Assembly (NCBI GenBank): GCA_965247095.1
Contig: OZ251997.1
Coordinates: 407,949-471,948, forward strand
DNA length: 64,000 bases
Origin: Candidatus Multivorans sp.
GTDB taxonomy: Bacteria > Acidobacteriota > Thermoanaerobaculia > Multivoradales > Multivoraceae
Direction: 5' to 3'
Shown here: one piece after another, positions 14,294 to 57,612 of the stretch
Position numbering within the stretch: the first letter of the stretch is position 1
How the letters are laid out: every line of letters starts with the position of its first letter
Position numbers and translations under genes: made by a program
Notes under the pieces: generated by a model
What the model saw: only the letters and a program-made list of their open reading frames with translations
Database searches by the model: none
Told to the model about the DNA's origin: nothing

Positions 14294-14413
14294 GGGAGTG
14301 AGAGTAGTGGCCAGTCGCTGGGGCCAACGGTCAGCACGGCGGAGGGACGGACAAAGGTGATCACGCCGTCGCTCCGCCGTGCGTTGCCCGTATCGGCGGG
14401 TCGGTCGGCCCGG

Positions 14414-14710
14414 CTACACGCAGATCGTCATGCTCCGGAAGGTCAGGTGCATCCCGACGGCGGTCAAGAAGGGGGAGCCAAGAGCCTGGCCGACGGCCGT
14501 AAGGAGCGCTCCGGCGACCGAGTCGGTCCTGCAACTGTGGCTCCGCGCTCCTCCAGCCACTCTCGTCAGGTCGGTGACCGTGAGCTGGTCGAGGCCATCG
14601 TGGCCGATGGTCGAGGTGCCGCCCGCCATCACGGCGTCAGGCGGTGTGGCGAAGGAAGCGCCGACGCTCAATACAAGGGCGATCGATGCAGTGGCTAGGA
14701 ATCTCGTCAT
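14414..14710 (-). CDS. Small secreted protein (98 aa), paralog of 16896-17198; two Cys, C-terminal ...CV
   Basis: ATG at 14710 with conserved GAAAGGA RBS; signal peptide MTRFLATASIALVLSVGASFATPP; aligns with the other small protein (LSVG[GA][AS]FA.PP...G.D.L[DE]QL...PFL.A...CV); embedded in the 441-aa Arg-rich ORF which is rejected. Confidence 0.55.
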   Translation of the reverse strand: MTRFLATASIALVLSVGASFATPPDAVMAGGTSTIGHDGLDQLTVTDLTRVAGGARSHSCRTDSVAGALLTAVGQALGSPFLTAVGMHLTFRSMTICV

Positions 14711-14913
14711 GTCCAGTGGTCCTTTCGGTTGTAGAGGGTTGGGGGTAGCCAGGTGGTGGAGGCCGCTGTCCGCGGCTCTCGAGCCACCTATGGACCAAGA
14801 CGGAATCGGCGCGGCTCCGTTCGTCTCGGTCACTTCGGTCCGAGCCGGCAGGGTCGTGTCCTTGCCTTGCTGTGAGCATGAGCCGCCCGACCGGAGGAGC
14901 CCGGGAAGCGGGC

Positions 14914-15603
14914 TCAGCCGCTGAGCATCTGCTCGCGGCGCTCCGCACGGGCGAAGGTCAGGGCGACGATGGCGGCGATGATGAGGGCAATGCCTATACG
15001 GTTCTGGACGGCCATGGTGAGCAACTGCTCGGCGTCGCCCCCTTTCACGGCGAGCGGGTTCCACAATGGCGAGATGCGCGGCTCGACCGAGAGGTATGCC
15101 ATTCGAAGGTTCGGGGCGAGTAGTGCCATGGTTGCCATTGCGCCGGTGACCTCGCTTCGGAAGAGGGTGGCGAAACCCATCGCTGCTACCAGGTAGAAAG
15201 CGGCTCCCTGCGCCGTGCCGTAGATGGTCTGAACAACTGGAAAGGAAGTGAAGAAAGCAAAGGTAAGCACCGCCGTCGGCGTCAGACTTGCAAACAGGAT
15301 CAGCCCTGCGGCAGCGAGTTTTCCGGTCCATACGCGACGGGTGCCGCCGGGTACGGTGTAGGCGATCTCCAGGGTGCGCTCGTCGAGTTCGCCGGCGATG
15401 ATCCGGCCGCCCAGGAAGACGGCGAGAACCGCGACCGGCGCACCAATCAGGGTGTTCTGTGCGTCGGCGGGCTCGAAGTTGGGCCGAAGCCCGGAGATGA
15501 GCAGTATCGCCTGAATTCCCAACCACGGCAGGGGCAGCAGCGGCAGCAGCCAGTAACGCGGGCCCCCGATCAGCACGGCGGAGAGACGGAGAACGGTGAT
15601 CAT
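14914..15603 (-). CDS. ABC-2 family transporter permease, paralog 3 of 3
   Basis: 229 aa, ~6 TM; ~60-70% identical to 15762-16451 and 17458-18150; ATG overlaps upstream relic stop (ATGA). Confidence 0.7.
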   Translation of the reverse strand: MITVLRLSAVLIGGPRYWLLPLLPLPWLGIQAILLISGLRPNFEPADAQNTLIGAPVAVLAVFLGGRIIAGELDERTLEIAYTVPGGTRRVWTGKLAAAGLILFASLTPTAVLTFAFFTSFPVVQTIYGTAQGAAFYLVAAMGFATLFRSEVTGAMATMALLAPNLRMAYLSVEPRISPLWNPLAVKGGDAEQLLTMAVQNRIGIALIIAAIVALTFARAERREQMLSG

Positions 15604-15700
15604 GCCGGAGCTCGGTCACCGGTCGCCTGGGCCGGCCAGAGGTAGCCGTCCCCGACCCGTCCGAGGCCATGGCTCTCGATGACCGGTGTAGTGCCCGCCA
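15601..15700 (-). pseudogene. Relic 3' end of an ABC ATPase gene (duplication scar)
   Basis: Minus-strand translation ...TPVIESHGLGRVGDGYLWPAQATGDRAPA* matches C-terminus of the RND-ABC fusion protein (...PVEPTLEDGYLWLAQAARGRAPT*) and keeps the same ATGA stop/start junction with the following permease. Confidence 0.6.
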
Positions 15701-15761
15701 CGACCGAGTTGGGCGGTACAGCGACAGAGGGGCAGACACTCAAGACAAGTGGCGACTCCTG

Positions 15762-16451
15762 CTAGCGGCTGAGCATCTTCTCGCGACGCTCCGCGCGAGC
15801 GAAGGTCAGGGCGACGATGGCGGCGATGGTGAGCGCGATGCCGATGCGGTTCTGGATGGTCATGGCGAGCAACTGCTCGGCGTCGGCTCCTTTCACGGCG
15901 AGCGGGTTCCAGAACGGCGAGATGCGCAGGTGCCCGCCGAAGCCGGTCACAGAGCCGTTCAAGCCGAATAGCGCAATCGTGACCAAGGCACCGCTCACCT
16001 CGCTGCGGAACAGCGTGGAGAAACCCATCGCCGCGGCTAGGTAGAAGCTGGCTCCTTGGCCAGCACCGTGGAGGGTCTGGACGACCGGAAACGCGGTGAA
16101 GAAGGCGAACGCCAGAACAGTCATCGGGATCAGGCTGCCAAGCAGGATCAGGCCTGCGGCGGTTAGTTTCCCCCACCAGACCCGATGGGCGCCGCCCGGG
16201 ACGGTGTAGGCGACTTCAAGGGTGCGCTCGTCGAGTTCGCCGGTGATGATCCGGCCGCCGAGAAACACAGCGAGGATCGCTACTGGCGCACCGATCAAGG
16301 TGTTCTGTGCAGCGGCGGGTTCGAAGCCGGGACGGCCGGTGAACAGCAACAGCACCGCCTGAAGGCCTAGCCAAGTCAGTGGCAGCAGAGGTAGCAGCCA
16401 GTATCTTGGCCCTCCGATCAGCACGGCGGAAAGACGGACAACGGTTCTCAT
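15762..16451 (-). CDS. ABC-2 family transporter permease, paralog 2 of 3
   Basis: 229 aa multi-TM, paralogous to neighbours; ATG start overlapping relic stop. Confidence 0.7.
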   Translation of the reverse strand: MRTVVRLSAVLIGGPRYWLLPLLPLTWLGLQAVLLLFTGRPGFEPAAAQNTLIGAPVAILAVFLGGRIITGELDERTLEVAYTVPGGAHRVWWGKLTAAGLILLGSLIPMTVLAFAFFTAFPVVQTLHGAGQGASFYLAAAMGFSTLFRSEVSGALVTIALFGLNGSVTGFGGHLRISPFWNPLAVKGADAEQLLAMTIQNRIGIALTIAAIVALTFARAERREKMLSR

Positions 16452-16500
16452 TGCAGCTCTCCCCCGCGGGTTGCTTGGCCCGACCGGAGGTAGGTGTCTC
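16449..16500 (-). pseudogene. Second relic ABC-ATPase 3' end (duplication scar)
   Basis: C-terminus of the 116-aa ORF 16448..16798 reads ...PPRDTYLRSGQATRGGELQ*, resembling ...EDGYLWLAQAARGRAPT*; same ATGA junction with permease start. Confidence 0.45.
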
Positions 16501-16895
16501 TAGGCGGCGCGACGCCTCCTTCGCCTTGCATGTAGAGGGTGGTGGGCGGAGGGACTGGGGTGCAGGTACTCCGGTTCAGCATGTCCCGTCGCGACGAGCG
16601 GCCATCCTGCCGACGATCCAGAGAGCTGGCAGCGAGAAGAGGGATGCGATGGCGACGAACAGGACCGGAGAACCGCCGACGAGGGCCAACAGCCGACCGC
16701 TCAACCAGCTTCGCCCGAAGGCGCTGCCCGGGGCAGGTCGCAGCGGCCGGTAGGGGCGGCTTTGTAGGTCCATGAACGTCGCCATCGAGTCCTTCCAAAC
16801 AGGAGCGTGATGCGCTATCCGCCCGCCTCTTTCCGGGGCCGAAGCCGGCACCCGCAATCAGAGAGTCTCATCGAGCGAGACGGCGCCGTTGTTGG

Positions 16896-17198
16896 CTAGA
16901 CACACACAGCGTCCGCGAGGAACGGACCGGCCAACCCGGCAGCGTGCATGAGCCCCCTGCCCGTGTAGATCCCTACGAAGACAAAGGCCTCGCCCGTCGT
17001 CTCAAAAGCAGCAGTGCAAGCTCCGGACCACCAAGCTGCTCCCATCACGCCGACCATCTCGGCATCCGCGAGTTGTTCGAGCCCGGGATTGTCGACGCCC
17101 GGATAGTCGCCCGCCACGGCCGTGACAGGCGGTTCTGCGAAGGCGCCGCCGACACTCAGTACAAACGCTGCCACTGCGATAGATAGAACTTTCTTCAT
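16896..17198 (-). CDS. Small secreted protein (~100 aa), paralog of 14414-14710; two Cys, C-terminal ...CV
   Basis: ATG 17198 (MKKVLSIAVAAFVLSVGGAFAEPP) with GAAAGGA RBS; upstream in-frame ATG at 17222 also possible; signal peptide; paralogous alignment with the other small protein. Confidence 0.55.
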   Translation of the reverse strand: MKKVLSIAVAAFVLSVGGAFAEPPVTAVAGDYPGVDNPGLEQLADAEMVGVMGAAWWSGACTAAFETTGEAFVFVGIYTGRGLMHAAGLAGPFLADAVCV

Positions 17199-17457
17199 GA
17201 TTCTTGTTCCTTTCCGTTTCATGGGTTCTTGTTGCCGTCGACCCCTTCGGAGAGGCCGACGACGCTGGTAGACGGGAAGGTCCTGCGGAAGCCGAGGAGG
17301 CTTCGCAGGTCCACCGCCGCGCAGCGCCTTACGGCGTGCAGGGACTGTGGACCGCCTATAGACCTATGACGGAATTCGGAGCGGCTTTTTCTGGCGAGGA
17401 CCCTGAGAGGGGGCTGGGTGGCAGTGGCTGCGTGTCAGGTCGAGGGCGGAACCCGGC

Positions 17458-18150
17458 TCAGCCGCCGAGCATCTTCTCGCGGCGTTCGGCGCGGGCGAAT
17501 GTCAGGGCGACGATGGCGGCGATCGCGAGGGCGATGCCGATCCGGTTCTGGACGCTCATCGCGAGCATCTGGTCGGCGTCGGCTCGGTCCACCGAGAGGG
17601 GGTTCCAGAACGGCGAGATGCGGAGGGGGTTTTCGCCGAAGCCGGTGATCAGGCCGTTGAGGCCAAGGAGGCCGGTCGTGGTCAGGGCGCCGGCCACCTC
17701 GCTGCGGAACAGGGTGGCGAGCCCCATGGCTGCAACCAGGTAGAAGGTGACGCCCTGGGCCGCGCCGTAGAGACTCTGGAAGACGGGGAAGGAGGTGAAG
17801 AAGGCGAACGTGACGGACGCCATCAAGGCCAGACTGGCGAGTAGCAACAGGCCGGCTGCGGCGAGCTTGCCGAGCCAGACGCGGTGAGCGCCGCCGGGTA
17901 CGGTGTAGGCGATCTCAAGAGAGCGCTGGTCGAGTTCGCCGGTGATGATCCGCCCGCCCAGGAACACGGCGAGAACGGCCACCGGCATTCCGATCAGTGT
18001 GTTCTGGGCGGCGTCACGTTCGAAGCCCGTCGCGGCGCCGGCCAACAGCAGGATCGCCTGCACGGCTAGCCACAGTAGCGGCAGCAGGGGCAGCAACCAG
18101 TAGCGCCGCCCTGCCAGCAGCACCGCGGACAGACGCAGCACGGCGATCAC
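17458..18150 (-). CDS. ABC-2 family transporter permease, paralog 1 of 3 (cognate of the fused ATPase upstream)
   Basis: 230 aa multi-TM; GTG start overlapping the stop of the RND-ABC fusion ORF (GTGA). Confidence 0.7.
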   Translation of the reverse strand: MIAVLRLSAVLLAGRRYWLLPLLPLLWLAVQAILLLAGAATGFERDAAQNTLIGMPVAVLAVFLGGRIITGELDQRSLEIAYTVPGGAHRVWLGKLAAAGLLLLASLALMASVTFAFFTSFPVFQSLYGAAQGVTFYLVAAMGLATLFRSEVAGALTTTGLLGLNGLITGFGENPLRISPFWNPLSVDRADADQMLAMSVQNRIGIALAIAAIVALTFARAERREKMLGG

Positions 18151-21100
18151 GTCGGGGCTCTGCCGCGCGCCGCCTGCGCCAGCCAGAGGTAGCCGTCCTC
18201 GAGCGTGGGTTCGACTGGTTCGGCCCGCCGATCGGGGCGGTCGGCAGCCAGCACGCGCAGGCGGCTGCTGCCGTCGGGTTCCGGTTGGCGATCGGCGAGC
18301 ACGGACGCCTCGGGAAGCTCCGGCTCCTCATCTCCGGGCGCCGTCCATGACCAGACACGGCCTTCGGCCTCTCGGGACAGCGCCGCCGGCTCGCCGTCGA
18401 ACACCATGCGGCCGCCGGTGAGCACCAGTACGCGCTCGCAGGCCACCGCCACGTCCTCGACGACGTGGGTCGAGAAGAGGACGATGCGGTCCTTGGCCAG
18501 GCGCGAGAGCAGGTTGCGGAAGCGGACGCGCTCGCGTGGGTCGAGGCCGACGGTCGGCTCGTCGACGACGATGATCGGCGGCAGGCGCAACAGCGTGCGG
18601 GCCACCGCGACCCGCTGCCGCATGCCGCCGGAGTAGCCGCCGATCGGTTCGTCCGCTCGCTCGTCGAGTCCGACTTCGCGCAGCAGGGAGCCGATGCGCT
18701 CCGCTCGCTCCGACGCCTCGATCTGGTAGAGCGCGGCGTAGTACTCGAGGTACTGCCGGGCCGTCAGGCGCGCCGGCAGGCCGGCGTCCTGCGGCAGGTA
18801 GCCGACGTAGCGGGCCAGCCGTTTCCGTATCCTGAGCAGGGGCACGCCGCCCAGCGTGATCCGGCCGCGGGTCGAATCCAGAATGCCGGTCACCTGGCGG
18901 AGCAGGGTCGTCTTGCCCGCGCCGTTCGGACCCAGCACGCCGACCATGCCCCGCTCGACATCGAAGCTCACCGCGGCCAGCGCCTTCACCGTGTCGATCG
19001 GCAGATCGAGACCGAAGATCCGGGTTGCTGCCGCCCGCCAGAGGCGGATCAACATGCCGCGCCAGCCACGGGTGCGCCGGCGGCGGGTTGACCGCTGCTC
19101 CCGGCGCACCGTCTCGAGACGGGCCGTGCGACGTCCGAGTTGGATCAGAAGGATGATCGTGGAGAGGATGGCCACGACGATGAACCCGCCCACCGCGGGC
19201 TCGGTGGCGAGAGCCGGACCGACCAGGCCCGCGAGAAGCGCCCAGGGCAGCAGGGCGGACAGAACGCCCTCGATGCCGCCCGGCTCGACTCGACCAAGCG
19301 CGTCGGCGCGGCCGCGGGCACGCCGGACCTCGGTCAGCAGCCGGGAAGCGATCAGCAGTGCGGCAATCCAGGCGCCCAGTTGGATCAGGTCGGCACGGAA
19401 CCTCATGGCCAGGGCGACCGCGCCGGCGAGCAACAGGAGCAAGGGCAGGATGCGGTCCCGCGCGTCGGCGGGGTGGAAGGCCTGACCGCCGCGGTCGACG
19501 ACCTGCTTGGCGAAGTCGGTCGATGCCCGCAGCGCCCGGCGCACCGGCCCCGGCCGGCCGTAGGTCTTGCGCAGGTGACGGACCACCAGCCGGGGCGGTC
19601 CGGCGTCGGCCTCCGGTTCCGGTGTCGGCGGTTTTGGCACCAGCCACACGGTGAGCCCGAGCAGGGCGCCGGCGATGAGCACGGTCGTCGTGACCTGCCA
19701 GAACATGGACTCGATCACGCCGAGAACGAACAACGGGGCGGTGGCCGCGATCACCGCGCCGAGCCAGGTCAGAACCACCCAGGGTCCGACGCGGCTGAAG
19801 ACATCGTCCAGGCGCCGCAGAAAGACGTAGCCGACCGGGATGACGAGCAGCGTGAGCACGGTCGAGGTCAGAAGACCGCCGATCACCAGGGTCGCGAAGG
19901 GCGGCCAGAGCTCGTTCTCGCGTCCCGTGGCGATGGCCAGCGGTGCGAGCGCCGCGATCGTCGTCGCGCTGGTCATCAACACCGGACGCGCGCGCTCGCG
20001 AACCGCGGCCAGGGCGGCGGCGCCCGCACTCCAGCCGGCGCCGAGTACCCGTTGCTGCATCCGGTCGACGAGCAGAACCGCCGGGTTCACCGCCAGCCCG
20101 AGGAGGACGAGCGCCCCGAGCAGCGCCATCGGATCGAGCCCGATGCCGGAGAACATCAGCGCCCACAGCGAGCCGAGCAGGGCGAGCGGCAGCGCGAGCA
20201 GAACAAGGATCGGCAGGGTCATCGACTCGAACGCCACCGCCAGAACCAGGAACACGAGCATCACGACCGGCGCCAGGACGCGCCGGAACCAGCTCGTGTT
20301 CTCGTCCGAGCGGTCGAGCTCGATTGTCGTTCCGGGCGGACGGTGGATGCTGGCAAGCGCCTCGTCCAGGTTGCGGTCGAATTCCAGCCGCGCCGGTCCG
20401 CCGCTTGGTACGTCGGACGAGACGCTGTAGATGACCTCCCGCTCGCGGCGGCCGTTGTGGTGTGTGATCACCGGGGAAGCCGGCGCGCGGCGCACCTGCG
20501 CCAAGGCGGCTACTGGCAGGACGCCAGCGCTCGTGGAGACGCGGAGCCGGGACAGGCCGCTCAGCGACGCCTCGCGCTCGAAACTGCTGCCGTCCACGAC
20601 CCGGGCGTCACTGGGTCGGTTCTCCGCGCGCTGGACGACGATCGGAAGCTCACGGCCGTTCGGAAGCGGGAAGCCGCTGTTGATGCTCGTACCCTCACGG
20701 CCGGCGAGACTCAGCATCGGCAGCACATCGTCGAGCAGGACGCCGAAGGTGTCGAAGGCGCGACGGTTCGGGCTGACGTGGATCTCGTCGGGGCCGGGCC
20801 GTGAGGCTAGAAAGGCGCCGCTGATCCCCTCGATCTCCTTGAGCCGCTCGGCGACCTCCGTGGCCAGACCGGTCAACTGGTCGTTGTCGTTTCCGGACAG
20901 GATGACCCGTTTCGGCCCTGCCCCGAGCAACTCCTGGGCGCCGCCGCCACCGCCGGGACCGCCGCCCCGACCGCCCGGGCCTTCGCCTTCGCCGGGTCGC
21001 AGAATCTCGGTACCGGCGCGCCGGTTCGCGGCCCGGCGTACGAGCTGACGGATCCGCGCCGCGGTCAGTTCCTCGGGGCGGTCCTCGAGTGCCTCGAGGT

Positions 21101-33632: not shown

Positions 33633-34628
33633 TCATAGGTTGTAAGCGTGCCGAATCGCCGCCGCCGCCAGCAGACGCGCCGGATCAAACAACGGCCGTC
33701 CCGCCGCCTCCGCTCCGCCCAGGGCCAGCGGAATCTCCGTACAACCCGCCACCAGCACATCGACGCCGGCGTCCCCGACCAGCCTCCCGGCCGCCTCCTC
33801 CAGCAGCACCCGTGCCCGCGGCGACCCGCCGTCCGTCTTGATCCCGCCGCCTCGATGCCGTCCATTGACCCAGGGCCCGTAGATCGCCTCCATGACCGCG
33901 CGGAGCTGCAGCGCTTCGCCGTCCTCCAGGTCGAGCGGGCTCACCGCCCGAAGGCCACGGGCCTCCAGCGGATCGTGGTAGAGCCGCGAGCGCAGCGTGC
34001 CGGACGTGGCGAGCAGGCCCACCCGCCCGCCAGGCGCGATGCGCTCCGCCTCGTCGGCCGTGACCTCGACCAGGCTGAGGATCGGCAGCGGGCTCTCCTC
34101 GCGCAGTGGCGCCATCCGTGCGCCCGATGACGGGCGCACGGACTGGTTCGCGGGTGACGCGGGACCGCGCCACCCGGGTGTCATCCATGCGCCCGATGAC
34201 GGGCCCATGGACTGGTTCGCGGCTGGCGCGGTCCCGCGCCACCCGGGTGTCATCCATGCGCCCGATGACGGGCCCATGGACTGGTTCGCGGCTGGCGCGG
34301 TCCCGCGCCACCCGGGTTCCAGGAACAGGTGCGCTGTATTGCAGGCGACCACGGCGAAGTCCGCTCCGGCCCGTCGCACCCGTTCCAGGCTCCGAAGCAG
34401 CACCGGGCTCGGGTCCTCCGCGTGGCCCAGGAAGGCTTCGGTCCGGTCGGGGGTCTGCGGAATGCTGGACAGCACCCATTCCGGGAAGTCCTGATCCGCC
34501 GTGGCGCCAGTCAACTCACGCGCCGCCTCCAGCAGCTTCCGCTCGAAGTCGAGATGGGCGAAGGGTCCGAGGCCCCCGACGATCCCTATCAGACGCTGCT
34601 GCCGCATGCGTTGAGTGGTCCTCGGCAT
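33633..34628 (-). CDS. Asp/Glu/hydantoin racemase-family protein carrying an in-frame 3x tandem repeat insertion
   Basis: LIGIVGGLGPFAH... and ...VDVLVAGCTEIPL racemase motifs with the two catalytic Cys regions; central 71-aa insert PGWRGTAPAANQSMGPSSGAWMT x3. Confidence 0.65.
   Translation of the reverse strand: MPRTTQRMRQQRLIGIVGGLGPFAHLDFERKLLEAARELTGATADQDFPEWVLSSIPQTPDRTEAFLGHAEDPSPVLLRSLERVRRAGADFAVVACNTAHLFLEPGWRGTAPAANQSMGPSSGAWMTPGWRGTAPAANQSMGPSSGAWMTPGWRGPASPANQSVRPSSGARMAPLREESPLPILSLVEVTADEAERIAPGGRVGLLATSGTLRSRLYHDPLEARGLRAVSPLDLEDGEALQLRAVMEAIYGPWVNGRHRGGGIKTDGGSPRARVLLEEAAGRLVGDAGVDVLVAGCTEIPLALGGAEAAGRPLFDPARLLAAAAIRHAYNL
34114..34328. repeat. Three tandem 69-bp copies of a palindromic repeat element (family A), in-frame within racemase gene
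   Basis: Units start at 34114, 34183, 34252 (CATCC[AG]TGCGCCCGATGACGGGC..TGGACTGGTTCGCGG.TGGCGCGG[GA/TC]CCGCGCCACCCGGGT); central hairpin TGGCGCGG..CCGCGCCA with loop flipped between copies. Confidence 0.8.
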
Positions 34629-38491: not shown

Positions 38492-41400
38492 ATGGCCCGC
38501 GGCTCGATCCTCGTTTCCTGTTCGGCGGCCCGACGGCTGGCGGCGGCCGCCGGGTGGCTGCGCAAACGCCGGCACGGCGAGGAGGAGACGCTGCTGCTTG
38601 CGGCCTCGCGCGGCGCCGCCGACGACCTGGTCCGGGGCATGTCGGAGACAGGCCGGGGGATGCTGGGCGTTCATCGCGCGTCGCTCGACCAGTGGGCGTT
38701 GCAGACCGCGGCGCTTGAGTTGGCCGCCCGTGGACTGCGGCCGGTCACGCCGCTCGGAACCGAGGCGATGGCGGCGCGGGTCGCCCGCCTTGCCGCGGCG
38801 CAAGGAGAACTGGAGCGTTTGGAGCCGGTTGCCGACCTTCCCGGTTTCGCCCGCTCCCTGGCGGGGACGATCGGTGAGCTGCGCGCGGCAGGCGTTTCGC
38901 CCGGCGACCTGCTGAAGGACCACGGAACGCGCGACCTGGGCCGGCTGGTTCACCGATTCGACGAGGAGATGACCCGTTTCGGGTTGGCGGATCCGGCGAC
39001 CGTGCTTCGCTCCGCCGTCGTGGCAGTGGACCGGGAGCAGGTCGCTGTTCCCAAGGGATCGCTGTGGCTCGATCTGCCGCTTCGAAGCGCTAGCCAGGTC
39101 GCACTCTTGCGGGCGCTCGCCGCGCGCAGCCGGGACGTGCTCGCGACCGTGGCCGCGGGCGACCACGAGACGCTGGAGTGGCTGGGGTCGCTGCTCGGCG
39201 ACGGGGCGGTGATCGATCTCGACCGGGAGGAAGCGGTCGACGCCGGGACTGCGGGCGGTCGTCGGCTGGCTCGGGTCCAGCGCTTCGTCTTTGAGACCGG
39301 AGCGGATGCGTCTTCGCCGCTTGACGGTACGCCAGGTGCGGGCGAGACGCCCGCGTTCCATCCGCGCGCCCGCGGACGGGCGCGCGGAGTGGTTCCCGGG
39401 TGGCGCGGGACCGCGCCACCCGGGTTCCCAGGCAGTGGAGCAGACGTGCCGGCCGGCTCTTCGGTCGACCTGTTCTCGGCGGCCGGCGAGGGCCAGGAGT
39501 GCGTCGAAATCGCCCGGCGCATCCAGCGCGCCGCCGCCGGGGGGCTTGCCTTCGATCGCATGGCGATCTTGCTTCGCCAGCCGGCCGCCTACCTGCCCCT
39601 GGTGGAGGACGCGCTCGGCCGCGCCGGCATCCCCGCCTACGTCACCCGGGGCACGTTGCGCCCCAATCCGGCCGGCCGCGCCTTCCTTGCCCTGCTGGCC
39701 TGCGCGGGGGAGAGACTCTCGGCAAGCCGCTTCGCCGAGTACCTGTCCCTCGGTCAGACCCCCGAACCGGCGAAGGGCGGCAGACCGCCAAAGCGCGAGG
39801 TGCCCTGGGTCGAGCCGGCGGGCGATCAACTCGTCATCAAGTCGCCGGAGCTCTCTCGAGCGCGGGCGTCTCGCCCGCATTCTGCGACCGACGGCGCCGC
39901 GGCCACCGACGCTCGCGAAACCCAGGAAGAGGCAGCGCCCGCCGGCGCGCTGCGCGTCCCCTCCCAGTGGGAGCGCTTGCTGGTCGACGCCGCCGTGGTC
40001 GGCGGCGCCGAACGCTGGCAGAAGCGGCTCGCGGGCCTTGGCGCGGAGTTCCGGCTGCAACTGCGCGAGGCCGGGGACGAGGACGAAGGCCGCAGGGCTT
40101 ACCTGGAGCGGCAGATCCGGCGCCTGGAGACGCTCCAGACGTTCGCGCTGCCCCTGATCGAGTTTCTCGACGCCCTGCCCGAGCACGCGGACTGGGGCTG
40201 GTGGCTCGAGCGTCTGCAGGAGCTGGCGACGATGGCGCTGCGCCGGCCGGAGACCGTGCTCGAGGTGCTTGCCGAGCTCCGACCGCTGGCGCAGGTCGAC
40301 GAGGTGGGCTTGGCCGAGGTGGAGCGGATTCTGGGCGAGCGCCTGCGCTTCAGCCGCAGCCGGCCGCCGAAGCGGCGGTTCGGCCGGGTCTTTGTCGGTG
40401 GCGTCGAGGAGGCGGCGGGACGGAGCTTCGAGGTCGTGTTCGTGCCGGGTCTGGCCGAGGGCGTGTTTCCGCGGCGGGCGAAGGAGGATCCGCTGCTGCT
40501 CGACGAACGTCGCCGGACGCTGCGAGAGGCGGGCTACCGGTTGACCGAGGATCTGGGGCGCACCCGGCGGGAGCAACTGCTGCTTCGCCTCGCCATCGGC
40601 GCCGCGAGTCGCTGGCTGGTCGTGTCGTATCCCCGGGTCGACCTGGTGCAGGGGCGCGCCCGGGTGCCGTCGCTGTACGCGCTCGATGTGCTGCGGGGCG
40701 CCGAGGGGCGCCTGCCGGACCTCGACGCGCTCGGCCGGCGTGCCGCGGCCGCCGGCGCCGCGGTGGTCGGCTGGCCGGCGCCGGCCGAACCCGAGGACGC
40801 GGTCGACGAGGCCGAGTTCGATCTCGCCCTGCTGCGGCCGCTCCTGGTCCCGGGCGCCCCGGTCGCGGAGCGCAGAGGACGGGCGCGCTTCCTCCTCGAG
40901 TCGAACCCGCACCTCAAGCGTGCCCTGGAGGCGCGCGGCCGGCGCTGGCGGCGACCCTGGTTCCCGGTCGACGGCCTCGTGGACGCGAGCGCCGAAGCCA
41001 GGGAAACGCTGGCCGCCCAGCGCATCGGCGCGCGCTCCTACTCGCCGACCGCGCTCCAGAACTTCGCCGCCTGCCCCTACCGCTTCTTCCTCCAGGCGGT
41101 GCTCTACCTCAGGCCCCGCGAGGAGCTGGTCCAGCTCGAGCAGATGGACCCGATGACCCGGGGCAGCATCTTCCACGAGATCCAGTTCCGCCTGTTCGGC
41201 GCCTTGGAGGCGGCGGACCTGCTGCCGGTGGCGCCGAGTTGCCTGGCGAGGGTCTTCGAACTGCTCGACGAGGTGCTCGCGCGGAGCGAACGCGACTACC
41301 GGGAGGAACTCGCGCCGCCGATCGAGCGCGTCTGGAGGGCGGAGTTCGAGGGCCTGCGGGCCGACCTGCGCGGCTGGTTGCGGCAGGTGGCGGACGAGGG

Positions 41401-48395: not shown

Positions 48396-48482
48396 GGGTG
48401 TTCGTCCTCGGCGGGACGCTACCACCTGGCCACCGGCAGCTTGAGCGAACGCCGCGCGCGGCCGCTCCGTATACTCCTTCGC

Positions 48483-49079
48483 ATGACCGTGACGCTGCTC
48501 GACCGGCCGCCGCGGACGCTGACGCGCAGTTTGGGGCCGTACCGCCGCTGCGACTACATGGCCCTCCCCGATGAACCCCGCTGCGAGTTGATCCGCGGGA
48601 GGTTCTACCTGAGTCCCAGCCCTATTGTTCTCCATCAGTTGATCGTCGGGCACCTGTTCCGCCTGTTCTTGGATGTGGCCGATCGCACCGGAGGAACCGC
48701 GATCGTGGCGCCGATGGATGTCCACCTGGCGGATCACTCGGTGGTCCAGCCCGACGTGATCTACGTCTCCCCGGAGCGCGGCGAGATCGTTCAGGATTGG
48801 ATGGAAGGCGCGCCGGACCTCCTGGTCGAGGTGCTGTCGCCATCGACCGCGTCGCGGGACCGGGTCCACAAGCTCGACCTCTACGCGACGGCCGGCGTGC
48901 GGGAGTACTGGATCGTCGATCCGCGGCAGCGCCGGATCACGTTCCTTGTTCACGACGGCGAGGGCTTCGCCGAGGGGGTGCCGGAAGGCGCTGGCTACGA
49001 GTCGCGCGTCGTGCCGGAGATCAGGCTGAACATGGACGAACTCTGGGCGGCGGTCGACCGGAAGTTCGCGAACGCCTGA
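48483..49079 (+). CDS. Uma2 (DUF820) family restriction-endonuclease-like protein
   Basis: PD-(D/E)XK-like signature PDVIYVSPE...PDLLVEVLSPST...D...K..LY...GVREYWIVDP. Confidence 0.65.
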   Translation: MTVTLLDRPPRTLTRSLGPYRRCDYMALPDEPRCELIRGRFYLSPSPIVLHQLIVGHLFRLFLDVADRTGGTAIVAPMDVHLADHSVVQPDVIYVSPERGEIVQDWMEGAPDLLVEVLSPSTASRDRVHKLDLYATAGVREYWIVDPRQRRITFLVHDGEGFAEGVPEGAGYESRVVPEIRLNMDELWAAVDRKFANA

Positions 49080-49094: not shown

Positions 49095-49145
49095 GCGGCC
49101 TGCTGTTCAGGTTCCTGGGAACGCGGGCATCCTGCCCGCATCCGG
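49095..49145. repeat. Hairpin repeat element (family B: GGGAACGCGGGCATC[CT]TGCCCGCATC) upstream of hisS
   Basis: TTCCTGGGAACGCGGGCATCCTGCCCGCATCCGGG; same element occurs twice at 56497-56592. Confidence 0.6.
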
Positions 49146-49226
49146 GCCGAGGCCCGGCTCGGCTCGCGCTCGAAGCTCCGTTCAGAGCGCCCCCGCATTG
49201 CGGCTGGATGGATACGATCGGCCCCC

Positions 49227-54499: not shown

Positions 54500-55683
54500 G
54501 CGCCGTGGGCGCTGAGACCGCCGGACGTTTCGACGACGCCGATCGGCGGGCGATGGGGCGGGCCCTGGCGCTGGCGCGGCGGGGCCGCCTGACCACGGCG
54601 CCGAACCCCATGGTGGGCGCGGTGGTCACGAAGAGCGGCGAGATCGTCGGCGCCGGCTGGCACCGTCGGGCCGGCGGCGAGCACGCGGAGGCGATGGCGC
54701 TCGACGCCGCCGGTGGCCGCGCCCGTGGCGGCACGATCTACGTCACGCTCGAGCCGTGCACCCATCACGGCCGGACCCCGCCCTGCGCGGGACGGATCCT
54801 GGAATCGGGGGTTGAGCGCGTGGTCTTCGCCCACCGCGATCCGAACCCCGAGGTGATCGGCGGCGGTGGCGAACGGCTGCGGGCCGCGGGCCTCCGGGTC
54901 GAGAGCGGGCTCCTGGCCGAGCAGGCGGTCGAGATGAATGTGCCCTTCCTGACCCGCGTCCTTCACGAGCGGCCCGCCGTGACCCTGAAGTGGGCGATGA
55001 GCCTGGACGGCCGCATCGCGACGGCGACCGGCGACAGCCAGTGGATCTCGTCGCCGCGCGGCCGCCGTTGGGCGCTCGAACTGCGCGAGGAGCACCAGGC
55101 GATCGTGGTCGGCAGCGGCACCGCGCTGGCCGACGATCCGCGTCTCGACCGGCGACTGGGCCGGGCCGAGGGACCGATCGTGCGGGTGGTGCTCGATCGG
55201 CGGTTGCGGCTATCCCCGGGGGCGCGGATGTTCGAGGTCGAGGGGCCGGTTGTCGTCTACACGGCGGCGCCGGAGGGCGGCGCGAACGAGGGCGCGGACG
55301 AGGGCGCGGTGGAATGGGCCCGGCGGCGAGACCGTCTACGTGATGCGGGCGCCGATGTCGTCGTGATCGAGGCCGTGGCGCCGCCCGCGGTGCTGGCGGA
55401 CCTGGCCGGGCGCGGCGTGTCGAACGTGCTCGTCGAGGGCGGTGCCGGGGTGCTGGAGGCGTTTGCGTCCTCGGGTGTCTGGGATCGGGCCGCGGTGTGC
55501 TGCGCGCCCCTCCTGATCGGCGGCGCGGCGGCCCTGGGCCCGATCGGCGGCGCCGGCGCGGAGAAGTTGGCTGACGCCTGGCGCCTCGATCGGCTGCGGG
55601 TTCTAAGGCGTGGCGCGGACGTGATTCTTGTAGGGTACCGGCAGGGATGTATACCGGAATTGTCACGGAGTGTGGCCGGGTAG
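54496..55683 (+). CDS. ribD: Bifunctional diaminohydroxyphosphoribosylaminopyrimidine deaminase / 5-amino-6-(5-phosphoribosylamino)uracil reductase
   Basis: CMP/dCMP deaminase zinc motif HAEAMAL...LEPCTHHGRTPPCA, then reductase domain; GTG overlapping ftsY stop (alternative ATG 54553). Confidence 0.85.
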   Translation: MSAVGAETAGRFDDADRRAMGRALALARRGRLTTAPNPMVGAVVTKSGEIVGAGWHRRAGGEHAEAMALDAAGGRARGGTIYVTLEPCTHHGRTPPCAGRILESGVERVVFAHRDPNPEVIGGGGERLRAAGLRVESGLLAEQAVEMNVPFLTRVLHERPAVTLKWAMSLDGRIATATGDSQWISSPRGRRWALELREEHQAIVVGSGTALADDPRLDRRLGRAEGPIVRVVLDRRLRLSPGARMFEVEGPVVVYTAAPEGGANEGADEGAVEWARRRDRLRDAGADVVVIEAVAPPAVLADLAGRGVSNVLVEGGAGVLEAFASSGVWDRAAVCCAPLLIGGAAALGPIGGAGAEKLADAWRLDRLRVLRRGADVILVGYRQGCIPELSRSVAG

Positions 55684-56396
55684 TCGAGGCCCCCAAAGCC
55701 CCCAAAGCCCCGACGCGCCACGGTGCCATCCGACCGCCCGAAGACGGGCGCTCGGACTGGGTCGCGTGTGGCGCGAGCACGCGCCCCACGGGTTCCCGCA
55801 TGGTGATCGGGCACTCGGCGGAGCTTGCGTCGCGGCTGGAGCCGGGCGCCAGCCTCTCGGTCGCCGGGGTCTGCCTGACCGTGGTGGAGCAGGGCGGCGC
55901 GAACGGAGTGTCGGGTAACGGCGCAGAGGGCGCCATCCCGGCCTGGTCCGCCTTCGATCTGTCTCCCGAAACGCTCAGCCGCACGACTCTTGGCGCTCTG
56001 GTTGACGGCGATGAGGTGAACCTGGAGCCGCCGCTTTCTGCCGGCGACCCCCTTGGCGGCCACTGGGTCCAGGGCCACGTCGACACGACGACCCGGGTGG
56101 CGAAAGTCGAGGAACTCGGAGACAACCGGGTCATCACGTTCGAAGTCCCCGCCGAGCTCGAGAACGGCCTCGTCCTCAAGGGCAGCGTGACGATCGACGG
56201 CGTCAGCCTGACGATCGCGGCGCTGGACGAAGAAACCTTCGACGTCGCCCTGATTCCGCACACGCTCGAGGTCACCACCCTCTCGGAGCTGAAGCCCGGC
56301 GACCCGGTCAACGTCGAGGGCGACGTCCTCGCCCGGTACGTCCAGAAGTCCGTCGAGGCGGCCGTCGCCGCCGCCCTCGAGTCGGCCCGGCGTTGA
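55647..56396 (+). CDS. ribE: Riboflavin synthase alpha subunit with N-terminal repeat-derived insertion
   Basis: MYTGIV...VAGVCLTV...GDEVNLE...GGHWVQGHVD...DGVSLTIA...IPHTLEVTTL two-lumazine-binding-repeat architecture; ~25-35 extra residues (APKAPKAPTRHGAIRPPEDGRSDWVACGASTRPTGS) versus canonical RibE. Confidence 0.8.
   Translation: MYTGIVTECGRVVEAPKAPKAPTRHGAIRPPEDGRSDWVACGASTRPTGSRMVIGHSAELASRLEPGASLSVAGVCLTVVEQGGANGVSGNGAEGAIPAWSAFDLSPETLSRTTLGALVDGDEVNLEPPLSAGDPLGGHWVQGHVDTTTRVAKVEELGDNRVITFEVPAELENGLVLKGSVTIDGVSLTIAALDEETFDVALIPHTLEVTTLSELKPGDPVNVEGDVLARYVQKSVEAAVAAALESARR
55737..55812. repeat. Family A palindromic repeat copy, in-frame inside ribE 5' region
   Basis: CATCCGACCGCCCGAAGACGGGCGCTCGGACTGGGTCGCGTGTGGCGCGAGCACGCGCCCCACGGGTTCCCGCATGG; preceded by tandem CCCCCAAAG x2. 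Confidence 0.7.
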
Positions 56397-56426
56397 GAGG
56401 GCATCGCGGGGCCCTTGAGGCCCGCC

Positions 56427-56592
56427 CCTGGGAGCCCGGGTGGCGCCCCGCGCCACCCGTGAACCACTCCGTGCGCCCGTCTTCGGGCGCGCGGATGGCA
56501 CGCGGGCATCTTGCCGGCATCTGCGTGAGGGCCGTCCGCGACATGAGCCGTCCGTCCTGGGAACGCGGGCATCTTGCCCGCATCTGGGTCAG
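56427..56592. repeat. Composite intergenic repeat: inverted family A copy followed by two family B hairpin copies
   Basis: CCTGGGAGCCCGGGTGGCGCCCCGCGCCACCCGTGAACCACTCCGTGCGCCCGTCTTCGGGCGCGCGGATGG (56427-56498), then ACGCGGGCATCTTGCCGGCATCTG and GGGAACGCGGGCATCTTGCCCGCATCTGG. Confidence 0.7.
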
Positions 56593-56604
56593 GATCGTCG
56601 CCCC

Positions 56605-57612
56605 GTGACTCCACTCAACCTCCGCGAACACGTCGCCGAACCGGCGAACCTCTGGATCCGTCACAGCTTCCCCCGTTGGCCCGCGGCCGGCAGCGGCAAG
56701 CTCTGGTGCGACTTCGCCACCGGCGGCCTGCCGCCATCGACCGTCGGGCCCTTGCCGGCCGCCGCCGAGGCCGCCGAAGGGGTGCACTCGGTGACCGATG
56801 TTGTGTACGTTCCCCCGCTACCGGCGGATCACGAGCACCTCCGTGCGCGCATCGTCGAGGCCGCGGCTGGCGCCGGAGTGCCGCTCCTGATTCAAGTGGT
56901 GGCGAACATCCCGGTCGGCGGGTCGAGCCTCGGCGAGCTGGCCGCGCCAAGACTTGCCGACCTGCCCCCCAACGCCGTCGTCGCAGTCGACCTCCTCGAC
57001 GCCCTGGTCCGCCACGCTGCCGCGCTGCGAAGCGAGTTCAGGGAGCGTCGGCAGCCTGGCCTCCCGTTCGAACCGCGTCCGCTGGCCGGCGCGACCGTCG
57101 TCTGGCCGCTCGTTGCCGACTGGACCGACCAGCCGGGCCTCCTGGCGCCGGCGATGGCCCGACTCGCTGCCGCCGGCGCCCGCCGCGTCGTACCGCGCGC
57201 GATGCAGCTCGGCGCCCGCGAGCGGCGCCTGCTCGCCGAACGCCTGCAATCCACCTGGCCCGAAGCCCTCGACGCCCTGTTTCACGGCGGCGATATACCA
57301 CCCGACGTCGCGGCGTTCCAACGCGCCGCCGAAGCCGCGGGTCTCCAGCCCCGCCTGCCCCGGCCCCTGCCCGTGCCGCCCCTGCCGCCCAGGCTCCGCC
57401 GCACGCGCGAACTCGCCGGCCACCTGATCGAACTCGGCGACGCCGCCGGCGCCGAGCGTCCCGTGTACTACCGTGCCGCCCGCTTCCTCGACCGCGGCGA
57501 AGTCGACATCGACGCCGCCGCCCGCGAAGGCAACCTGAGCGTCTTGCCCTGGCTGGAGGAACTGGCCAGGGTGGCCGTGGAGGAGTGGCTGGCTACGAAC
57601 CGCGGAAGCTAG
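56605..57612 (+). CDS. Hypothetical protein (335 aa)
   Basis: GTG start just after the repeat block (upstream 55 codons of the ORF are repeat-derived); Ala/Leu/Pro-rich but non-repetitive; no motif recognised. Confidence 0.4.
   Translation: MTPLNLREHVAEPANLWIRHSFPRWPAAGSGKLWCDFATGGLPPSTVGPLPAAAEAAEGVHSVTDVVYVPPLPADHEHLRARIVEAAAGAGVPLLIQVVANIPVGGSSLGELAAPRLADLPPNAVVAVDLLDALVRHAAALRSEFRERRQPGLPFEPRPLAGATVVWPLVADWTDQPGLLAPAMARLAAAGARRVVPRAMQLGARERRLLAERLQSTWPEALDALFHGGDIPPDVAAFQRAAEAAGLQPRLPRPLPVPPLPPRLRRTRELAGHLIELGDAAGAERPVYYRAARFLDRGEVDIDAAAREGNLSVLPWLEELARVAVEEWLATNRGS

Follow-up and report, generated by a model that had tools for sequence, protein, structure and literature searches.

The stretch of DNA analysed here (the window) comprises 64,000 nucleotides of contig OZ251997.1 from Candidatus Multivorans sp. 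(Acidobacteriota, Thermoanaerobaculia), and our subject is a block of GC-rich hairpin repeats in the spacer downstream of its ribE gene. ribE, the gene for riboflavin synthase, encodes a Lum_binding domain protein and ends with a TGA stop codon at 56394-56396. The next gene (56605-57612, plus strand; gene calls and Pfam) has no Pfam match and no assigned function; its start is most likely the GTG at 56605, because its orthologue in the related locus L107 is called at the same start and because the codon-position signal begins there. The spacer between stop and start measures 208 nt, in agreement with the initial annotation of this locus, which had also recognised that the repeats make the six-frame open reading frame (ORF) at 56440-57612 artificially long by 55 codons. 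Read from the left, the block opens with the heptamer CCTGGGA (56427-56433, minus strand; TCCCAGG on the element strand), the right flank of a carrier hairpin from which it has been cut off by an inserted element. That element, the family A core, occupies 56435-56500 on the minus strand as a short variant of 66 nt with two GC-rich hairpins, H1 (GCGCGCCCG-AAGA-CGGGCGCAC) and H2 (GGTGGCGCGGGGCGCCACC); it matches the core pattern with no mismatch and the core covariance model with 78.8 bits (E=9e-16), and an identical copy lies at the orthologous places in L107 and in a second related locus, L012. The carrier hairpin itself, H0, follows at 56501-56523 (minus strand, by pattern match; GCGGGCATCTTGCCGGC, or CAGATGCCGGCAAGATGCCCGCG on the element strand), with one mismatch in the stem and two over the 25-nt pattern; its orthologues in L012 and L107 are the variant with a G-C closing pair, GCGGGCGTCTCGCCCGC. 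A second, solo H0 lies at 56556-56587 on the minus strand, an exact pattern match that reads CCAGATGCGGGCAAGATGCCCGCGTTCCCAGG on the element strand and CCTGGGAAC-GCGGGCATCTTGCCCGC-ATCTGG on the forward strand. The 32 nt between the two hairpins (56524-56555) have no second copy in the sampled data by blastn-short, which rules them out as a further repeat module. The initial annotation had described an inverted family A copy followed by two short hairpins: all are present, but the first hairpin is the carrier half of a composite and not an independent element. The window holds six matches to the core pattern and four to the short-hairpin (H0) pattern, against 0.00 expected for each in 100 dinucleotide-preserving shuffles, and the covariance model finds the six known core units and no more.

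The long and the short repeat had been read as modular variants of one system. The flank on which this view was based is indeed common to both: GGGTTCCCAGG closes the family A copies (39420-39432), and its reverse complement, CCTGGGAAC, stands ahead of the short hairpin. It is common, however, because the core splits H0 from its own flank. A solo H0 reads GCCCGCG|TTCCCAGG and the composite GCCCGCG-[TGCCATCC...CCCGGG]-TTCCCAGG, and the TTCCCAGG that directly follows the hairpin in solo H0 follows the core in 18 of the 21 composites with H0 (context T1). What is inserted is the core, and H0 serves as one carrier among several; the two are nested, and they are not variants of each other. The breadth of this arrangement was seen in a scan of a genome collection with a strict core pattern, which returned at least 106 loci and to which all copy and context counts for the core refer. 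Among 117 strict copies, 42 lie in the carrier T2, 29 in unique sequence, 21 in T1/H0, 12 in T3, six in T4 and four in tandem with another core, with three unresolved. On the right, 81 of 114 copies are flanked by TTC and seven by TTG. Insertion is in a single, fixed orientation just 5' of TTC(C/T/G), in at least three carrier families and at many unique sites, and the composite resembles 'family A plus short hairpin' because a target TTC sits at the 3' foot of H0. A related hairpin, T2 (CTGGGTGCGCCGGCC-TTCT-GGCCGGCATCCGG, with the foot GGGTGC), contains the core within its loop; here the core points the other way relative to its carrier, and once more a TTC directly follows it. T3, a repeat of ~250 nt, is found empty in L031 (GACG|TTCGCGC) and filled in L033, L014 and L103 (GACG-[TGCC...CCCGGG]-TTCGCGC), so that paralogous empty sites are available as T3 in L031 and L095, as solo H0 and as solo T2. 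The trinucleotides that flank the core are mostly TGC (TKC) on the left and mostly TTC on the right and do not co-vary between copies, which lends no support to a simple target-site duplication of 3-4 bp, a model that was rejected. T3 and T4, dispersed repeats of larger size in relatives (about 230-280 and about 200-270 nt, respectively), were also seen to carry the core, for example at 4200-4490 of L033 and 7150-7460 of L010.

The core itself is 66-69 nt long and consists of two unlike GC hairpins of 11-12 bp, H1 and H2, on the same strand. Its consensus over 110 distinct copies is T(G/T)CCATCC-GTGCGCCCG-ATGA-CGGGCGCAC-GGACTGGTTCRCGG-GTGGCGCG-GAT-CGCGCCAC-CCGGG, usually followed by TTC. In the alignment of these copies 96.2% of the stem cells are paired and eight pairs have changed on both sides; the double-change cells number 59 compared with 7.1 in shuffles, a value that none of 500 shuffles reached, and the signal collapses once the partner columns are slid by 1-3 positions. 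Both stems are conserved through compensatory changes, and for H2 the covariation is free of ascertainment since this hairpin lies outside the search pattern. The two ends of the core, TGCCATCC and CCCGGG, are not inverted repeats of each other, and no terminal inverted repeats were seen in the copies compared. At positions that the pattern does not fix, copies are 0.76-0.82 identical between species and 0.75-0.85 within a genome, whereas RibE identity among these genomes is only 70-82% at the protein level. A shared consensus is therefore being kept up, which is what one would expect were it set by a conserved enzyme or by a structure under selection.

Of the window's four core sites, three lie in coding sequence, all three in frame, and these had escaped the initial annotation. 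The Asp/Glu racemase gene (33633-34628, minus strand) contains three tandem core units of 69 nt (207 nt in all, at 34112-34318 on the plus strand, from alignments). The alignment of its product with PDB 1jfl is broken by 70 residues, the insert accounting for three times 23, and two orthologues with protein identities of 96% and 95% carry no unit and one unit, respectively. At the DNA level the alleles differ by exactly 69 nt per unit, placed between CTGTTCC and TGGCGCC with an ambiguity of 3 nt. Such tandem arrays may have grown by slippage or unequal exchange. A further racemase without the insert (P0138, on OZ250177.1) has a protein identity of only 84% although this relative is otherwise 97% identical to the window, which suggests local recombination or a mosaic genome.

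In ribE a 69-nt core at 55724-55792 (plus strand, from the protein alignment) encodes the 23 residues GAIRPPEDGRSDWVACGASTRPT. The insert is present in P0001, P0002, P0007 and P0008, that is, in the lineage of the window and in a second lineage (P0007/P0008), and absent from 14 other orthologues including the nearest (82% identity); the empty site in L107 reads CACGGCTCCCGC (CAC GGC TCC CGC). An AlphaFold (AF2) model of RibE places residues 20-47 in a low-confidence, disordered loop between two confident strands, in a model whose mean predicted local distance difference test (pLDDT) score is only 69.8. Just upstream of the insert, at 55690-55707, a 9-nt sequence is directly duplicated (CCCCCAAAG twice, encoding PKAPKA), with one copy fewer in P0002. 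RibE orthologues also vary by a second, unrelated insert rich in G, A, S and V, of 0 to ~45 residues, between VVEQG and AWSAFDL (residues ~84-97, ~55890-55930). The gene is bracketed by inverted cores, 55724-55792 on the plus and 56435-56500 on the minus strand, which are ~640 nt apart and 87% complementary; inversion between them, or long-range pairing in the transcript, would be possible. The third genic site is a complete composite at 39333-39432 (plus strand) in the gene for an AddB-like PD-(D/E)XK nuclease, with H0 at 39333-39355, a 69-nt core at 39356-39424 and TTCCCAGG at 39425-39432. It matches the ribE-downstream block in inverted orientation (77 nt, 88%), has the same codon phase on both sides and gives the nuclease about 40 residues more than P0241 (73% identical) and every other homologue.

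The initial annotation had named an absence of further copies genome-wide as decisive against its reading, and the copies turned out to be plentiful. The strict pattern has at least 106 matches in about 20 related genomes, and the covariance model finds 126 cores (E below 1e-6) in the 800 kb of these loci, which amounts to ~3 copies per 100 kb beyond the ascertained one and hence to the order of 10^2 per genome. Among the matches listed, all hosts are Acidobacteriota metagenome-assembled genomes (MAGs): roughly a dozen species of Candidatus Multivorans (Thermoanaerobaculia, Ca. Multivoradales), other Thermoanaerobaculia, and MAGs from sponges and corals labelled Holophagales, Vicinamibacteraceae or Acidobacteria. 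A scan of viral contigs for the core gave no match and no sign of a phage vector. The suggestion that the block is made of REP-like (repetitive extragenic palindromic) repeats is borne out in so far as its parts are members of dispersed hairpin-forming families with many copies elsewhere. Gene context was taken from a home-made caller based on codon-position GC (coding fraction 0.80), and the figures are rough: 97 cores are intergenic and 11 lie inside genes, the former divided into 64 co-directional, 25 convergent and eight divergent intervals where 57%, 17% and 25% are expected from the intergenic base pairs. The core is unbiased in orientation relative to the upstream gene (37 vs 26) and lies a median of 66 nt beyond its stop codon. 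This placement between genes is the REP pattern. The genic share in the wider sample is only about 6-10%; the first two classifiers of 'inside gene', based on GC at third codon positions, were too strict and missed known cases, and the looser tests that replaced them are still crude. A length of 69 nt is found in seven of nine genic copies assigned by the caller, in ribE and in the three racemase units, while 68 nt is commonest elsewhere. The genic cores are read in at least four different frames or strands and yield unrelated peptides (PGWRGTAPAANQS..., AIRPPEDGRSDW..., FHPRARGRARGVV..., PRGADPRHTRTS...). What is preserved in genic copies is the reading frame and no particular peptide.

H0 is the smaller of the two repeats. 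It is 31-32 nt long, with a 7-bp stem and a 3-nt loop, and 45-47 copies occur in the 0.9 Mb sampled; on the composite strand the consensus of about 32 nt is C(G/A)GAT-GCGGGC(R)-NGA-(Y)GCCCGC-GTTCCCAGG. Of its closing pairs, 25 are G-C, 18 A-T and three C-G. The two strands show different feet, CGGAT and GGAAC; a C-n-G-A tetranucleotide (CGGA or CAGA) and then a T precede the stem in 36 of 45 copies, and ATCTGGG or TTCCCAGG follows the hairpin. Copies lie mainly 30-80 nt past stop codons, in both orientations, and a small hairpin, CCGGCGC-TTCG-GCGCCGG, often adjoins them on the 5' side. The copy upstream of hisS, which the initial annotation had correctly noticed, is of this kind: H0 proper spans 49114-49145 with one difference in the loop, and the adjoining hairpin CCGGGCC-GAG-GCCCGG extends the feature to 49157 (49114-49157, minus strand, by pattern match). 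It lies 35 nt past the stop codon of a gene of the Uma2 family, a putative restriction endonuclease at 48441-49079 (Pfam PF05685, E=3e-30). A further H0-like hairpin (GCGGGCGTCTCGCCCGC) lies at 39862-39878 inside the AddB-like ORF, ~430 nt past the composite, where the protein is poorly conserved.

Taken together, we consider it likely that the ribE-downstream block is a pile-up of non-autonomous, hairpin-forming repeats specific to Thermoanaerobaculia and of the kind of REPs, Rickettsia palindromic elements (RPEs) or the MITEs (miniature elements of transposable, inverted-repeat type) derived from IS200/IS605, and the general statement that these are nested, non-autonomous, REP-like mobile repeats we hold with much the same confidence. 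The history of the spacer bears on this reading. L012 (OZ250177.1) is 97% identical to the window over 2.1 kb, and both it and L107 (CBDCVC01, RibE 82% identical) have one composite at the same place, with the G-C variant of H0 and without the second H0. The composite thus predates the split of the three lineages. The window spacer is longer by 63 nt, made up of the second H0 and the 32-nt spacer, which by comparison of the sequences appears to be a later addition private to the lineage of the window; its loss from the other lineages by recombination between the two H0 copies is possible and would need two events. Both H0 copies of the window spacer have an A-T closing pair where the orthologues have G-C, and the sequences that follow them are weakly similar (p about 0.01), which makes a duplication on the spot, with conversion, and a fresh insertion about equally likely. 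The spacer of a more distant relative, L109 (OY762911.1, 2800-2900), holds another, empty carrier, T2' (CTGGGTGCGCGGGTC-TTCC-GACCCGCA), followed by GCGATGCCGCGAAGCGGCG; the spacer is accordingly a recurrent landing place and not a conserved structure.

The strongest alternative would make the repeats immobile, spread and maintained only by recombination, gene conversion and slippage of GC-rich palindromes, with the second H0 as a tandem duplication of 63 nt. The exact 69-nt period of the tandem arrays, the short direct repeats at the junctions (T-K-C/TTC, CCA) and, in the spacer, both the similar tails and the A-T closing pairs, which point to local conversion, would all be accommodated. Recombination alone does not, however, put a 69-nt unit into new, unrelated sites such as those in ribE and the racemase gene, nor does it account for identical core boundaries in at least three unrelated carriers and about 29 unique contexts, in fixed orientation to TTC, and we regard this alternative as improbable.

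A second alternative sees in the block a dedicated cis-regulatory RNA for the rib operon that has been kept for its function as terminator, attenuator or processing site. The RNA of the spacer does fold far better than shuffled sequences (-122.6 kcal/mol, z = -3.4), the composite has been kept at the same place in three lineages, and both stems show compensatory changes. Yet more than 100 unrelated places have the same units, which are found in both orientations and also inside coding regions; the spacer of L109 has another repeat, and the lineage of the window changed its own block by 63 nt. Scanning 55500-57000 for terminators and promoters gave nothing, with no site that combines a hairpin with a T-run as in an intrinsic terminator, and Rfam 15 at its gathering thresholds had no match in the window and five related loci. 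A dedicated regulatory RNA is on this evidence rather less probable still. As a pile-up of mobile repeats the block would have no dedicated role for ribE; at most, once transcribed, its very stable hairpins may act in the manner of REPs in enterobacterial operons, as a barrier to 3' exonucleases or as a partial transcriptional or translational brake before the next gene.

The genic copies invite a third view, in which the core is primarily a mobile cassette for 23 residues, selected for its effect on proteins, and copies between genes arise as a by-product. In its favour, four of the six consensus frames are open, the 69-nt length is enriched in genes, and inserts lie in frame not only in ribE, the racemase and the AddB-like nuclease but in about eight further genes. 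About 90% of the sampled copies lie outside genes, however, those within genes run through at least four frames or strands with unrelated peptides, the insert is modelled as a disordered loop, and conservation tracks base pairing and not codons, all of which leaves a peptide cassette very improbable. Least of all do we believe in an artefact of assembly or binning: the sequences all come from MAGs, and misassembly and chimeric joins classically occur at repeats, but the same arrangement recurs in independent assemblies from different samples and species (L012, L107/L108, L111, L112), the reading frames of essential genes stay intact through the inserts, many source contigs are complete chromosomes of 4-5 Mb, and copies in long-read MAGs of the European Nucleotide Archive as well as in independent short-read MAGs from sponges and corals make a fault of one pipeline unlikely. 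Two further candidates were dropped, a CRISPR-like array, as the tandem arrays have no spacers, and an integron attC site, as there are no R'/R'' core sites.

If the repeats are mobile, the core and H0 would be moved by a single-strand, hairpin-recognising Y1/HUH enzyme of the RAYT (REP-associated tyrosine transposase), class 3 TnpA_Y1 or IS200/IS605 TnpA type that is encoded elsewhere in the genome. The lack of terminal inverted repeats and target-site duplications, the strict orientation at a short motif, the hairpins at both ends, the apparently precise presence or absence, the consensus maintained across species and the CnGA foot are what suggest this kind of mobilisation, to which we assign a chance close to even but slightly below it. 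An excised circle of the 66-69-nt core, if formed, would have the junction ...GGATGGCA|CCCGGG..., and in none of the at least 106 loci is the core split around a gene.

Several observations weigh against mobility or its proposed agent. The initial annotation had expected a cognate RAYT, and none was found in the ~0.9 Mb sampled, that is, the at least 106 loci and the window: six-frame translations gave no RAYT/Y1 transposase with a regular expression for HUH...Y..NP, all-against-all clustering of 704 called proteins gave no recurrent transposase-like family, and the best E-value of the E. coli RayT in tblastn was 0.24. Nor do the feet of H0, T2 and the core that were inspected carry a 5' GT[AG]G or CGTC tag, the former being the canonical mark of REPs, and the published class 3 repeat CnGAGCCGCGACCGTnAGGGAGCG (PMC6006769, Table S1) is unrelated to the core and, apart from the foot, to H0. 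A single cut-and-paste register fails to describe every site, as the junction in the racemase gene is shifted by ~2 nt: the carrier sites fit [TGCCATCC...CCCGGG]|TTC, the racemase site fits [CCATCC...GGGTT] with an ambiguity of 3 nt (CCA), and the empty racemase allele has no TTC. Since 25 positions are fixed in the scan pattern, the conservation of H1 is partly ascertainment; the roughness of the gene calls has been mentioned. For the second H0 an origin by local duplication of 63 nt, and not by new insertion, is a serious possibility at somewhat less than an even chance, and a REP-like barrier effect of the block on the ribE mRNA is conjecture drawn from REP biology (PMC3733652, PMC6006769).

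Beyond these considerations one may tentatively envisage a hitherto undescribed system throughout the Thermoanaerobaculia, in which a HUH/Y1 enzyme, possibly class 3-like, inserts the core, specific as to site and orientation, next to TTC at the foot or in the loop of other hairpins and routinely adds and multiplies 23-residue loops in essential proteins, as with the 0, 1 or 3 units of one racemase in strains that are at least 95% identical. We regard this stronger proposal as rather unlikely; if true, it would provide a counterpart of the Rickettsia RPE in high-GC, free-living or symbiotic bacteria, with a mechanism that can be analysed. The literature searched holds no account of such repeats in Thermoanaerobaculia, which is no proof of novelty. 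For the ribE spacer nothing special is implied: it is one landing site among many, and the block itself is ordinary. What gives the family its interest are the genic copies and the clean series of filled sites, empty sites and copy numbers; in a poorly studied phylum, this series could reveal by what rule a REP-like system picks its target and, later, which enzyme it uses. There are practical consequences for annotation, too. The repeats cause false extensions of ORFs, as for the gene at 56605, and mislead the choice of start codons; the home-made caller truncated both ribE and the racemase gene at their inserts, and additions of 23-69 residues to enzymes could pass for domains or frameshifts. 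Elsewhere in the window, at 14310-18200, and with no relation to the hairpin repeats, lie three to four tandem paralogous units with small ORFs on the minus strand, spaced start to start by 848 and 1699 nt and 70-90% identical.

Among known systems the closest in general behaviour are the REPs, which together with the mosaic arrangements known as BIMEs (bacterial interspersed mosaic elements) and the inverted doublets known as REPINs (REP doublets forming hairpins) are associated with RAYT (TnpA_REP) transposases (Bertels and Rainey 2011, PMC3116915; Di Nocera et al. 2013, PMC3733652). H0 and the core share with them the short, imperfect GC-rich palindromes, the high copy number, the mostly extragenic position near the 3' ends of genes in either orientation, the clustering into mosaics, the consensus kept across related species, the lack of terminal inverted repeats and target-site duplications, and the occasional insertion in frame or within another palindrome. 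For both of the latter there are precedents: REPs occur in frame in ORFs, recB genes included, where they contribute 20-30 residues per unit or dimer and up to 82 residues per cluster, and within small palindromes of the form CCGSSCC..GGSSCGG in Thermomicrobium roseum (PMC3733652). The differences are equally clear. H0 fits the size of a REP, whereas the core is longer at 66-69 nt than the 20-40 nt of REPs; H1 and H2 differ from each other and stand on the same strand, unlike the inverted doublet of a REPIN, and H0 stands singly or beside an unrelated hairpin; the tag is missing, and no RAYT accompanies the copies in the sequence sampled. The repeats associated with class 3 TnpA_Y1 in Acidobacteria and Planctomycetes have a CnGA foot 5' of the hairpin (Quentin et al. 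2018, PMC6006769). They resemble H0 in belonging to the same phylum, in forming hairpins in hundreds of copies and in this foot, the likeness being one of the foot only; no class 3 gene lies near any sampled copy.

Miniature elements derived from IS200/IS605, the palindrome-associated transposable elements, and the 'peel and paste' transposition of IS608 and ISDra2 offer a comparison for the architecture of the core. In both, hairpins stand close to either end, terminal inverted repeats and evident target-site duplications are absent, insertion is oriented at a short motif, and presence or absence is apparently precise; in the core, unlike in these elements, the hairpins start only a few nt from the ends and the junction register varies between sites, the empty racemase site having no TTC. 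We know of no parent insertion sequence with the ends of the core. A classical MITE of DDE transposase ancestry is a poor match, since the core has neither terminal inverted repeats nor a target-site duplication of fixed length. BOX elements of Streptococcus pneumoniae, the enterobacterial repetitive intergenic consensus (ERIC) and Correia elements are alike in their modular build, strong RNA folding, position in transcribed spacers and possible effect on mRNA stability (PMC10969869 and general background), while ERIC and Correia have terminal inverted repeats, Correia a TA duplication, and none a sequence relation to H0 or the core.

The genic copies find their closest parallel in the RPEs of Rickettsia, reportedly described by Ogata et al. 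in 2000. RPEs, too, are palindromic repeats that occur in frame in unrelated housekeeping genes, where they add a surface loop of 20-50 residues, and also between genes (summarised in PMC10969869 and PMC3733652). They differ from the core in sequence, size (RPE-1 has about 100-150 bp), base composition and the lifestyle of the host, and genic copies of the core are a minority (about 10%) that is able to expand as tandem units of 23 residues. The likeness is one of working and not of membership, as there is no relation in sequence or in a CGTC tag. Overall, the H0/core system fails the sequence-level tests for a canonical REP and for a DDE-type MITE but works like the known REP and RPE elements, and in-frame palindromic inserts are not peculiar to Rickettsia.

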